Source of the DNA: Escherichia coli
GTDB taxonomy: Bacteria; Pseudomonadota; Gammaproteobacteria; Enterobacterales; Enterobacteriaceae
Length of the DNA: 64,000 nucleotides
Assembly (NCBI RefSeq): GCF_022846255.1
Contig: NZ_AP025682.1
Direction: 5' to 3' (one strand)
Under the pieces are notes generated by a model that was given only the letters and a program-made list of their open reading frames with translations, had not been told where the DNA came from and did not search any database. Each line of letters starts with the position of its first letter. Positions within the stretch are counted from its first letter, which is position 1. Position numbers and translations under genes: made by a program. Positions 34,599-44,229 of this stretch are shown here, one piece after another.

Positions 34599-35555
34599 TC
34601 AATACCCCATATTTTTCTTCTTCTCTAACTCTTCTTTTGCGGTATCAGGCAGATAAAGGGTGGATTTGGTCAGCGTTAGCTTTTCAGGCATGGTGCCGTC
34701 TTTTTTGTATTTCTCCAGCGCGTCGAAAGCAGGACCTGCCATGTTCGGCGTCAGTTCAACGCTGGCGTTCGCTTCGCCATCAATCATCGCTTTGTAGATG
34801 TCCGGCACGCCGTCGATAGAGCCTGTCAGGATATCTTTGCCCGGTTTCAGGCCCGCTTCTTTAATTGCCTGAATTGCACCAATCACCATGTCATCGTTAT
34901 GGGCGTAAACCATGCAGATGTTTTTGCCGTTGTTTTCCGCTTTGATAAAGCTCTCCATCACTTCTTTGCCTTTGCTGCGGGTGAAGTCACCTGACTGCGA
35001 GCGGATAATTTTGATATTTGGCGCATTCTTTATGGCTTCGGCAAAGCCTTTCTTACGGTCAATGGCGACGCTGGCCCCAACGGTGCCCTGTAACTCAACC
35101 ACGTTACATGGTTTGCCGTTAACCTCTTTCACCAGCCAGTCACCGATCAACTTACCTTCGAGGATGTTGTCGGCAGTAACGGTGGTCATATAGAGAGATT
35201 TGTCTTTCACATCGATGGAACGGTCAAGCAAGAAGACCGGGATTTCGGCATCTTTCGCCTCTTTTAATACCGGTTCCCAACCCGTCGCCACCACCGGAGC
35301 GATAAAGATCGCATCCACCCCTTGTGCGACGAAGGAACGTACCGCTTTAATCTGGTTTTCCTGCTTTTGCTGACCATCGGCAATTTTCAGTGTGATACCG
35401 CGTTTTTCGGCTTCACTTTTCGCCACATTGGTTTCTGCGGCGCGCCAGCCGGATTCCGATCCGACCTGCGAAAATCCTACGGTTAATGGAGCGGCCAACG
35501 CCATAGACGACATGGCTGCCGAGACTGCAGAGACTACAAGTAAGCGTTTCCACAT
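34599..35555 (-). CDS. ytfQ: Periplasmic galactofuranose-binding protein
   Basis: 318-aa ORF with signal peptide (MWKRLLVVSAVSAAMSSMALA) and periplasmic-binding-protein fold signature. Confidence 0.92.
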   Translation of the reverse strand: MWKRLLVVSAVSAAMSSMALAAPLTVGFSQVGSESGWRAAETNVAKSEAEKRGITLKIADGQQKQENQIKAVRSFVAQGVDAIFIAPVVATGWEPVLKEAKDAEIPVFLLDRSIDVKDKSLYMTTVTADNILEGKLIGDWLVKEVNGKPCNVVELQGTVGASVAIDRKKGFAEAIKNAPNIKIIRSQSGDFTRSKGKEVMESFIKAENNGKNICMVYAHNDDMVIGAIQAIKEAGLKPGKDILTGSIDGVPDIYKAMIDGEANASVELTPNMAGPAFDALEKYKKDGTMPEKLTLTKSTLYLPDTAKEELEKKKNMGY

Positions 35556-35625
35556 AGGGTTGTCCTCGTCGGGGTAATTATTATTGGTGAAAAGATGTTC
35601 GCGAAAAAACTATAGACAATTCGTT

Positions 35626-35646
35626 ATGTAACGGATTGCGTTACAT
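35626..35646. promoter_or_regulatory. Palindromic candidate operator in ytfQ/ppa divergent region
   Basis: ATGTAACG-gattg-CGTTACAT (8-bp perfect arms) ~70 bp upstream of ytfQ start. Confidence 0.4.
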
Positions 35647-35864
35647 CACACTTCAAAAAAGTAAATAAAACGTTAATCACAAGTTTGTAATCGCTTTCAT
35701 CTCACTATGAAAAATGCGGCTACGGTTATGGATTTTCCTGCTCTGTATACCGTCTTAAAACTGGCGAAAAAGGAAAATGAAGACGAAAACAAGCGAAGAC
35801 ATTCGGCGCGAGTTGGCTATAATACTCGGCACTTGTTTGCCACATATTTTTAAAGGAAACAGAC

Positions 35865-36395
35865 ATGAGCTTACTCAACGTCCCTGCGGGTAAAGATCTG
35901 CCGGAAGACATCTACGTTGTTATTGAGATCCCGGCTAACGCAGATCCGATCAAATACGAAATCGACAAAGAGAGCGGCGCACTGTTCGTTGACCGCTTCA
36001 TGTCCACCGCGATGTTCTATCCGTGCAACTACGGTTACATCAACCACACTCTGTCTCTGGACGGTGACCCGGTTGACGTACTGGTCCCGACTCCGTACCC
36101 GCTGCAGCCGGGTTCTGTGATCCGCTGCCGTCCGGTTGGCGTACTGAAAATGACCGACGAAGCCGGTGAAGATGCGAAACTGATTGCTGTTCCGCACACC
36201 AAGCTGAGCAAAGAATACGATCACATTAAAGACGTTAACGATCTGCCAGAGCTGCTGAAAGCGCAAATCGCTCACTTCTTCGAGCACTACAAAGACCTCG
36301 AAAAAGGCAAGTGGGTTAAAGTTGAAGGTTGGGAAAACGCAGAAGCCGCTAAAGCTGAAATCGTTGCTTCCTTCGAGCGCGCCAAGAATAAATAA
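35865..36395 (+). CDS. ppa: Inorganic pyrophosphatase
   Basis: 176-aa [26 protein letters not shown]... Confidence 0.96.
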
Positions 36396-36409
36396 GTTCT
36401 TCTGGCGTA

Positions 36410-36450
36410 ATAACCCTGAACGCCGGGCTTCGGTTAGTAGGGGTTTTTTT
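36410..36450 (+). terminator. ppa terminator
   Basis: aaccc...ggggtt stem region followed by T7 run. Confidence 0.6.
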
Positions 36451-36749
36451 ATGCCCGCAATTTATAAACTCTCTACTCCACTATTATTATTTTCAGCAGT
36501 TTAAAGGCTTGAACGGTAAGAACAAGCTAAACTCGACCACCATTTTGCTGTTCATAGCCACTTGCTGGAAGTTAGCCGGCCTCACTCATACTCACCGTTC
36601 AAAGCGTGTCCCCGTTTTACCCCTGTACATTTGTTAACGCCAGCAGAGTTTTACATGCGTTAACGGATATGGAAAGCGGCTCGGAAGGAAAAGCAAAAGG
36701 CGAGGAAGTTACAAAAAAGAATACGCGTCGTCTCGCAAAAAAATAACGC

Positions 36750-36761
36750 CACCCGCAGGTG
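36750..36761. repeat. IS4 target-site duplication, left copy
   Basis: cacccgcaggtg, identical to 38188..38199. Confidence 0.85.
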
Positions 36762-38187
36762 TAATGCCGATCAGTTAAGGATCAGTTGACCGATCCAGTG
36801 GCTGTGTAAGAATCCGGAAACGCTCACTTGTTTCCGGATTTTTTTATGCACATTGGACAGGCTCTTGATCTGGTATCCCGTTACGATTCTCTGCGTAACC
36901 CACTGACTTCTCTGGGGGATTACCTCGACCCCGAACTCATCTCTCGTTGCCTTGCCGAATCAGGTACTGTAACGCTACGCAAGCGCCGTCTTCCCCTCGA
37001 AATGATGGTCTGGTGTATTGTTGGCATGGCGCTTGAGCGTAAAGAACCTCTTCACCAGATTGTGAATCGCCTGGACATCATGCTGCCGGGCAATCGCCCC
37101 TTCGTTGCCCCCAGTGCCGTTATTCAGGCCCGCCAGCGCCTGGGAAGTGAGGCTGTCCGCCGCGTGTTCACGAAAACAGCGCAGCTCTGGCATAACGCCA
37201 CGCCGCATCCGCACTGGTGCGGCCTGACCCTGCTGGCCATCGATGGTGTGTTCTGGCGCACACCGGATACACCAGAGAACGATGCAGCCTTCCCCCGCCA
37301 GACACATGCCGGGAACCCGGCGCTCTACCCGCAGGTCAAAATGGTCTGCCAGATGGAACTGACCAGCCATCTGCTGACGGCTGCAGCCTTCGGCACGATG
37401 AAGAACAGCGAAAATGAGCTTGCTGAGCAACTTATAGAACAAACCGGCGATAACACTCTGACGTTAATGGATAAAGGTTATTACTCACTGGGACTGTTAA
37501 ATGCCTGGAGCCTGGCGGGAGAACACCGCCACTGGATGATACCTCTCAGAAAGGGAGCGCAATATGAAGAGATCAGAAAACTGGGTAAAGGCGATCATCT
37601 GGTGAAGCTGAAAACCAGCCCGCAGGCACGAAAAAAGTGGCCGGGACTGGGAAATGAAGTGACAGCCCGCCTGCTGACCGTGACGCGCAAAGGAAAAGTC
37701 TGCCATCTGCTGACGTCGATGACGGACGCCATGCGCTTCCCCGGAGGAGAAATGGCGGATCTGTACAGTCATCGCTGGGAAATCGAACTGGGATACAGGG
37801 AGATAAAACAGACGATGCAACTGAGCAGGCTGACGCTGAGAAGTAAAAAACCGGAGCTTGTGGAGCAAGAGCTGTGGGGTGTCTTACTGGCTTATAATCT
37901 GGTGAGATATCAGATGATTAAAATGGCGGAACATCTGAAAGGTTACTGGCCGAATCAACTGAGTTTCTCAGAATCATGTGGAATGGTGATGAGAATGCTG
38001 ATGACATTGCAGGGCGCTTCACCGGGACGTATACCGGAGCTGATGCGCGATCTTGCAAGTATGGGACAACTTGTGAAATTACCGACAAGAAGGGAAAGGG
38101 CCTTCCCGAGAGTGGTAAAGGAGAGGCCCTGGAAATACCCCACAGCCCCGAAAAAGAGCCAGTCAGTTGCTTAACTGACTGGCATTA
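36762..38187 (+). mobile_element. Insertion sequence IS4 (1426 bp) with 18-bp imperfect terminal inverted repeats
   Basis: Left IR taatgccgatcagttaag; right IR reverse complement taatgccagtcagttaag (16/18); encodes IS4-type DDE transposase; flanked by 12-bp direct repeat. Confidence 0.9.
36846..38174 (+). CDS. insG: IS4 transposase (InsG-like)
   Basis: 442 aa from ATG at 36846 ([16 protein letters not shown]...); track ORF begins at an upstream TTG. Confidence 0.9.
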
Positions 38188-38199
38188 CACCCGCAGGTG
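38188..38199. repeat. IS4 target-site duplication, right copy
   Basis: cacccgcaggtg direct repeat. Confidence 0.85.
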
Positions 38200-38213
38200 G
38201 CGTGCTTTTATTA

Positions 38214-38555
38214 TTACTTATCCCTGTCTAACCAGTCGCCGCTTTCAATTAGCTTTAATCCATCGACGGGTCGTTGATAAACGTACATCCATGCACTCCC
38301 GTACGGCGTCTGAATCAACTGGCGCGCGTATTCACCGCCCCTGGTGCGCAAGGCATCAAGTTCGGCCAGCGTGGCGTTGTCAATACGATAAACTTCACCG
38401 TGTACTGTTCCGTTCCCCGGAACTGCGCCTGGATAGTGGCCCAGGCTATACAACTGGTAGTTATCGATACTGAAATCGCCCAGTAACTGGGCATTGGTCA
38501 TCCAGTGACTGTTGCCTTGTTTGTGGCGTAAACTGCCGTAGACAAATATTCGCAT
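38214..38555 (-). CDS. ytfP: Gamma-glutamylcyclotransferase-family protein YtfP
   Basis: 113-aa ORF MRIFVYGSLRHKQGNSHWM... (GGCT-like YGSL motif). Confidence 0.9.
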   Translation of the reverse strand: MRIFVYGSLRHKQGNSHWMTNAQLLGDFSIDNYQLYSLGHYPGAVPGNGTVHGEVYRIDNATLAELDALRTRGGEYARQLIQTPYGSAWMYVYQRPVDGLKLIESGDWLDRDK

Positions 38556-38557
38556 TG

Positions 38558-44229
<5,672 letters not shown>

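Follow-up and report, generated by a model that had tools for sequence, protein, structure and literature searches.

A chpSB-minus allele of the ppa-ytfP spacer in Escherichia coli carries a decayed remnant of chpB

Introduction

The chpS-chpB module of Escherichia coli K-12 (also named chpBI-chpBK) is a type II toxin-antitoxin (TA) system located between ppa and ytfP, in the order ppa-chpB-chpS-ytfP according to the annotation of the K-12 record. The presence of this module varies among strains. In 47 complete genomes, the ytfP-ppa locus was reported to carry chpBS in 53%, esiB in 15%, and neither in 32%, and short direct repeats with partial inverted symmetry were described at the boundaries of esiB (Pastorello et al. 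2013, mBio, PMC3735183). The passages of that paper on chpBS, ytfP, and ppa make no mention of a chpB remnant in the esiB and "neither" alleles, or of their occurrence in Escherichia albertii. More generally, some chromosomal TA loci of E. coli are known to be degenerating at conserved locations (review PMC7167474, citing the decay of ccdO157 [Mine et al. 2009] and Fiedoruk et al. 2015).

Here we describe the ppa-ytfP locus in a 64,000-nucleotide stretch of an E. coli genome (assembly GCF_022846255.1, contig NZ_AP025682.1), referred to below as the window. The interval between ppa and an IS4 insertion next to ytfP very probably represents a widespread chpSB-minus form of the ppa-ytfP spacer, which arose by deletions at an occupied site and was not empty from the start. 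The three-state polymorphism of the locus was published in 2013, and the mechanism described here is ordinary gene decay. The presence of the chpB relic, in E. albertii as well as in E. coli, may be a minor, previously undescribed addition.

Results and discussion

Layout of the locus

The locus is bounded by ppa on the left and by ytfP on the right (Table 1). No open reading frame (ORF) longer than 60 codons was found in the interval, in agreement with the original prediction; the longest candidates encode 60 amino acids (starting inside ppa), 46 amino acids, and 42 amino acids. To the right of IS4, the tamB/ytfP region (38200-42400) was only 99.2% identical to its best match among 5426 complete E. 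coli genomes.

Table 1. Features of the ppa-ytfP locus (positions in the window)
Feature	Position	Strand	Remarks
ytfQ	34599-35555	-	
ppa, inorganic diphosphatase	35865-36395	+	Left anchor of the locus; 176-amino-acid ORF; orthologous position annotated ppa in K-12, STEC299, E. coli B, and APEC
Interval under study	36396-36761		Between ppa and IS4
ppa 3' flank with predicted terminator hairpin	36396-36469	+	Stem at about 36412-36445, U-run to 36450
Junction of deletion 1	36470-36477		Diverged bases; K-12 counterpart lies just 3' of the chpB stop codon (alignments)
chpB relic	36478-36603	-	Codons 7-48 of a 116-codon PemK/MazF-family toxin gene; decayed, with in-frame stop and frameshift
Filler GCGTGTCCC, 9 bp	36604-36612		At the junction of deletion 2 (alignments)
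Spacer homologous to K-12 chpS-ytfP intergenic DNA	36613-36761		Alignment
Left part of predicted bidirectional ytfP terminator hairpin	36746-36761		ACGCCACC-CGCA-GGTG; remaining 4 bases (GCGT) at 38200-38203
IS4 target-site duplication CACCCGCAGGTG	36750-36761 (left); 38188-38199 (right)		12 bp, perfect
IS4	36762-38187	+	1426 bp; transposase ORF at 36846-38174, 442 amino acids from ATG
Hairpin at IS4 right end, then U-run on the ytfP strand	38158-38183	-	Terminator-like site, 11 pairs
Last part of the spacer	38200-38213		14 bp, up to the ytfP stop codon
ytfP, gamma-glutamylcyclotransferase family	38214-38555	-	Right anchor; ORF and annotated orthologues
tamB	38558-42337	-	

A remnant of chpB within the interval

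The interval contains a collinear fragment of chpB. For the comparison with the K-12 locus (L001), IS4 and one copy of its duplication were taken out of the window sequence used as the query. Short-word blastn then returned three collinear blocks, which correspond to the ppa flank, a piece of chpB, and the ytfP-side spacer. The ppa flank was 95% identical to K-12 over 74 bp, and the spacer was 87 to 93% identical to positions 3225 to 3376 of L001, with the rest of the K-12-homologous chpS-ytfP spacer lying beyond IS4. The middle block covers 69 bp within the chpB coding sequence (82.6% identity; E value of 1.6e-16). By dynamic programming, the relic core (36501-36603) reached a local score of 79, compared with 17.9±2.0 for shuffled sequences (maximum of 26; n = 300) and 19 for the reverse complement. 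With softer parameters, the whole relic paired with positions 2786 to 2912 of L001, with matches at 91 of 126 bases (72% identity overall and about 80% in the core). At the protein level, amino acids 19 to 48 of ChpB matched the interval by tblastn with 60% identity across an in-frame stop (E value of 3e-9), and the ChpB motif SEFER recurs as TRFER in another frame of the relic. An overall identity of only 72% would fit long decay and a divergent chpB source allele alike.

The relic lies between ppa and ytfP in the same orientation as K-12 chpB, and it is a pseudogene fragment limited to codons 7 to 48; an intact ORF of about 110 to 116 codons is absent. The adjacent upstream antitoxin gene (ChpS, MazE_antitoxin PF04014) is also absent. 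No trace of chpS was found in the interval, where a tblastn search with ChpS gave only chance matches (E values of ≥1.1). The past presence of an antitoxin at this allele (hereafter the short allele) is thus deduced from the arrangement in K-12.

The original prediction placed chpS-chpB between ppa and ytfP in K-12 and held that the window has no intact pair there. The K-12 record bears out the first statement, and the lack of any ORF above 60 codons, together with the missing 312-bp segment that contains chpS, bears out the second. Its further claim that nothing in the interval resembles a PemI/PemK-type pair is overturned by the chpB relic, with its alignment score far above those of shuffled sequences and its tblastn match. 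Indeed, alignment with K-12 uncovered a degraded chpB remnant, the outcome that the prediction itself had named as counting against it.

The frame-corrected translation of the relic had no match to the Pfam profile PemK_toxin (PF02452) at an E value of ≤1, compared with 90.3 bits for K-12 ChpB. Assignment of the relic accordingly rests on direct comparison with the chpB sequence and not on the Pfam profile. This failure to match the profile explains why the relic was flagged neither at the first reading of the sequence nor in the annotation of short alleles, and it carries no annotation in the RefSeq short-allele records inspected. Because profile searches miss the relic, surveys based on PCR or hidden Markov models (HMMs) would score such strains as simple absences. 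Megablast alone also missed the relic, together with the right-hand K-12 homology; short-word blastn and dynamic programming were needed to detect them.

It is extremely improbable that the lineage never acquired chpSB and that the interval is an ancestral empty site. The lack of an intact ORF and of any chpS trace agrees with this explanation, and a scan of other genera (YtfP as the query, one genome per species) revealed ytfP-ppa gaps of about 100 to 170 bp without the module in many other species and genera. The collinear chpB fragment argues directly against it. In addition, the Escherichia short allele measures about 380 bp and is therefore larger than a truly empty site.

Two deletions and a proposed history

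Alignment with K-12 delimits two deletions. The first spans 201 bp and is bounded by CCACCA repeats located 201 bp apart in K-12 (L001 positions 2585 and 2786); it took most of the 3' part of chpB, a loss of about 67 codons (roughly 49 to 115). The second spans 312 bp (L001 positions 2913 to 3224), which are replaced by the 9-bp filler (Table 1). It took codons 1 to 6 of chpB, all of chpS, the chpS ribosome-binding site, and 49 bp upstream, and its junction is identical in every short allele examined. Compared with the K-12 module, the short allele thus occupies the same site and keeps a homologous stretch of chpB in the same orientation, but it lacks both ends of chpB, chpS, and the proximal promoter. 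What remains of chpB contains a stop codon and a frameshift and has no Pfam match.

We propose the following history as very probable. An ancestor would have carried chpS-chpB between ppa and ytfP, as K-12 does. A deletion of 201 bp, bounded on either side by CCACCA, would have stripped the 3' part of chpB, and a 312-bp deletion would have stripped chpB codons 1 to 6, chpS, and the proximal promoter/operator, leaving the 9-bp filler. The remaining 126 bp of chpB would then have drifted as presumably neutral DNA, acquiring the stop codon, the frameshift, and an A+T bias. IS4 would have entered the ytfP terminator hairpin later, with its 12-bp duplication. Inactivation of the toxin is expected to have come before loss of the antitoxin because antitoxin loss alone would be lethal; this order is an expectation that the sequence itself does not show.

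Predicted terminators and the search for a hidden function

Three sites at the locus have the G+C-rich hairpin and U-run predicted for intrinsic (Rho-independent) terminators: the ppa end, the ytfP hairpin, and the IS4 end. By folding, the ppa hairpin, which is followed by seven U residues, has an energy of -21.2 kcal/mol. The ytfP hairpin, reconstructed as it was before the IS4 insertion, has an 8-bp G+C stem between an A-run and a U-run, with energies of -15.4 and -17.3 kcal/mol on the two strands (z scores of -2.9 and -3.2). This hairpin at the end of the spacer looks like a bidirectional terminator for ytfP. The hairpin at the right end of IS4 has an energy of -24.9 kcal/mol (z score of -3.9) and may serve as a substitute terminator for ytfP transcripts.

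The original prediction regarded the interval as too long for a terminator only and suggested that it may hold a small RNA or a promoter remnant. The first part has a simpler explanation, since the terminator, the relic, and the spacer common to K-12 account for the full length. That the interval is kept for a small RNA or an active chpS promoter remnant seems very unlikely to us. In its favor, the minus strand of the relic folds better than shuffled sequences (-44.4 kcal/mol; z score of -2.7), one weak promoter-like site occurs at 36461-36490, and the spacer at 36613-36761 may retain distal sequence from the K-12 region upstream of chpS. Against these points, an Rfam 15 scan of positions 35500 to 38700 returned a single match, to the S15 leader, which lies inside ppa and scores far below the cutoff (17.9 versus 39.5 bits). 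Promoter-like sites occur at the level expected by chance (3 found versus 2.5 expected). Consensus folding of six relic alleles revealed no compensatory change in any of 44 predicted pairs, and the E. albertii allele breaks the main stem. The relic is also as polymorphic as its flanks. Intact chpB has the inverted repeat as well, which is therefore inherited coding sequence. Finally, the 46-amino-acid ORF (36606-36746) was rejected as a gene: K-12 lacks it, its C terminus varies, and its start coincides with the deletion junction.

Distribution among E. coli genomes and published locus states

The short allele is widespread in E. coli. With a requirement that at least 80% of the interval be matched, it was detected in 2315 of 5426 complete genomes, at identities of 87.5 to 99.7%. 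The chpB-chpS region (at least 80% of the K-12 region matched) was detected in 3098 of them, and the two classes together make up 5413 of the 5426 genomes. The K-12-type region occurs in K-12 and O157:H7, and the short allele occurs in E. coli B (ATCC 11303) and a B2 APEC strain. In a further variant (188 of the 5426 genomes, including Nissle 1917), esiB is located between the short allele and ytfP. Expressed as proportions of the 5426 genomes, chpBS was present in 57%, esiB in 3.5%, and neither in about 39%.

These states correspond to the three described by Pastorello et al. (2013) in the passages on this locus. The esiB repeats are also the same, and we find that they are two copies of the terminator hairpin. 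The window differs from the locus states given there by the presence of IS4 in the hairpin. The relic shares several features with the decaying E. coli TA loci as they are presented in the review PMC7167474, namely a conserved location, deletions together with inactivating mutations, and variable presence among strains. Unlike the many independent lesions of those other loci, it represents one allele with fixed breakpoints across Escherichia species.

The practical value of the relic finding is small. It does imply that chpSB-negative E. coli (B/BL21-type strains, B2 strains, and the lineage of the window) are probably descendants of carriers and not naive genomes, which bears on statements about the gain and loss of TA modules. 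Moreover, breakpoints common to Escherichia species provide a clean marker for the persistence of a dead TA allele beside a live one.

Age and relatives of the short allele

Junctions were identical in all seven short alleles aligned (those of the window, STEC299, the B2 APEC strain, E. coli B, EC_J_9, the cryptic-clade strain SCPM-O-B-8794, and the E. albertii type strain). Relative to five intact Escherichia alleles (K-12, E69, Escherichia whittamii, MOD1-EC7003, and E1V33), the relics share 20 fixed differences, including 10 GC-to-AT and 2 AT-to-GC changes. Across 125 gap-free relic columns, 25 were variable among the short alleles versus 8 among the intact ones. In a neighbor-joining tree, the relics formed one clade, sister to intact Escherichia chpB, in which E. 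albertii branched first. The identical junctions, the shared fixed differences, and the single relic clade indicate that the deletions predate the spread of the short allele across species. Judged from these comparisons, the loss of chpSB is far older than the IS4 insertion.

Relics of E. coli and E. albertii were 82 to 87% identical. For comparison, identities at third codon positions between the window and E. albertii were 73% for tamB and 86 to 88% for ppa and ytfP. The divergence of the relics is compatible with roughly neutral change since the two species split.

The 20 fixed differences and the long branch that they produce could also suggest descent of the relic from another PemK-family module once inserted at this site, and not from the chpB lineage of K-12. 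We consider this origin highly unlikely. The relic is about 67% identical to Escherichia chpB (over 141 columns that include nonhomologous edges), compared with only 47 to 59% for the chpB genes of Enterobacter, Lelliottia, Kluyvera, Pseudocitrobacter, and isolate RIT691. Its orientation and position are those of chpB, and the A+T-ward bias of its substitutions fits decay.

The flanks of the relic tell the two allele classes apart at no position. No fixed differences between chpSB-plus and chpSB-minus alleles were found in the ppa flank (65 columns) or in the ytfP-side spacer (147 columns). The spacer at 36613-36761 occurs as at least two divergent haplotypes (GCGTTAA...CGTCGTCTCGC versus GCGATTGCAG...AGATACATCGC). 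These haplotypes are distributed independently of the presence of chpSB, which points to recombination between the allele classes right up to the relic.

A tentative reading, which we regard as possible but hardly established, is that intact chpSB and the relic allele have coexisted since before the split of E. coli and E. albertii, as a genus-wide trans-species polymorphism. Under such a polymorphism, the flanks would recombine freely, and the relic would keep its 20 private substitutions. The two alleles could be kept up by a balance between the addictive resistance of the module to replacement and its cost. An alternative to long coexistence is the repeated interspecies exchange of a 0.4- to 0.9-kb cassette.

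Outside these alleles, chpS-chpB was found at the same ytfP-ppa offset in four other Escherichia lineages and in several other genera. The ChpB identities were 78% for Enterobacter asburiae, 76% for Lelliottia, 72 to 73% for two Pseudocitrobacter genomes, 72% for Kluyvera genomosp. 1, and 64% for isolate RIT691. The homologues are located at about 4550-5150 in L045, L036, L054, L072, L074, and L089 (Enterobacter asburiae, Lelliottia, RIT691, Pseudocitrobacter, and Kluyvera). Their occurrence at the same site in several genera suggests that the module is ancient in Enterobacteriaceae or has been repeatedly targeted there. In several Citrobacter, Enterobacter, and Lelliottia genomes (L016, L017, L023, L025, L029 to L031, L034, L043, and others), ytfP and ppa are separated by 1.6 to 3.9 kb of non-chpSB DNA. 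The ytfP-ppa spacer looks like a hotspot for insertions in general.

Two genomes from one Canadian study, HH45 (L005 1393-1904) and HH97 (L091 397-987), have unusual sequences at this locus. In HH45, the relic has a 100% K-12-like sequence; the HH97 relic is K-12-like in part. Both flanks of HH45 are of the E. coli B type; in HH97, the ytfP-side spacer is B type and the ppa-side junction is K-12-like. PGAP calls partial PemK/ChpB pseudogenes in these stretches. We rejected the two genomes as evolutionary intermediates because they have garbled G/C-homopolymer stretches exactly where the alleles differ, come from one study, and have chimeric flanks. They look like assembly artifacts, i.e., a mispolished or mixed-sample consensus.

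IS4 and esiB at the ytfP side

The element next to ytfP is IS4, as identified by its length and 12-bp duplication (about 1.4 kb and 11 to 13 bp are typical), its 442-amino-acid ORF for the DDE transposase (Table 1), its terminal inverted repeats (TAATGCC...GGCATTA), and its 99% identity to annotated IS4. This copy is ordinary in size, duplication, and transposase, with nothing unusual about it. Among the 5426 complete E. coli genomes, IS4 was found at exactly this position in one other genome only, GF130, where it is followed by esiB. The GF130 element (annotated "IS4-like element IS4 family transposase") differs from the window copy at 14 of 1426 bases, so the two are likely to be independent insertions. 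Strain C25 carries the allele of the window and has neither IS4 nor esiB there; the two sequences show 3 differences over 380 bp.

A removal of chpSB or of other neighboring DNA by IS4 or its transposition is scarcely credible. IS elements can cause adjacent deletions, and the closest haplotypes (STEC299 and GF130) carry esiB beside the site and the window does not; the window also shares a CGCA hairpin loop with the esiB-side repeat. On the other side, the 12-bp duplication is perfect, thousands of IS4-free genomes share the chpSB deletion junctions, neither element accompanies the allele in C25, and the two IS4 copies differ in a way that suggests independent insertions. These data support the argument of the original prediction that a perfect duplication speaks against a deletion by IS4. 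Of the two histories that it offered, loss of chpSB before IS4 arrived agrees with the occurrence of the allele in so many E. coli genomes and in E. albertii, and a lineage that never acquired the module is at odds with the relic.

The closest relatives of the interval carry esiB between the relic allele and ytfP (STEC299, L002 2867-4520; GF130, L006 4568-6040). The product of esiB is a Sel1-repeat protein that binds secretory IgA. A copy of the terminator hairpin lies at each end of the gene (20-bp hairpin repeats). The hairpin loop of the window, CGCA, matches that of the esiB-side repeat in STEC299 and GF130; in C25 and other esiB-less alleles, the loop is CGAA. This single-base difference gives a faint hint that esiB may once have been present in the lineage of the window and that recombination between the repeats removed it.

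IS4 favors targets of the AAA-N20-TTT type. Two unrelated sites have IS4 directly 3' of an A-run and a G+C-rich hairpin, one ending with AAAAAAATAACGCCACCCGCAGGTG (window 36734-36761) and one ending with AAAAAAAAGCCCCCGAACCGGGG (NCTC86; L090 at about 300-327, downstream of yhcO), and this arrangement suggests a preference of IS4 for terminator-like targets. Similar A-run/hairpin targets also explain why megablast matches extended about 27 bp past the IS4 end in other genomes.
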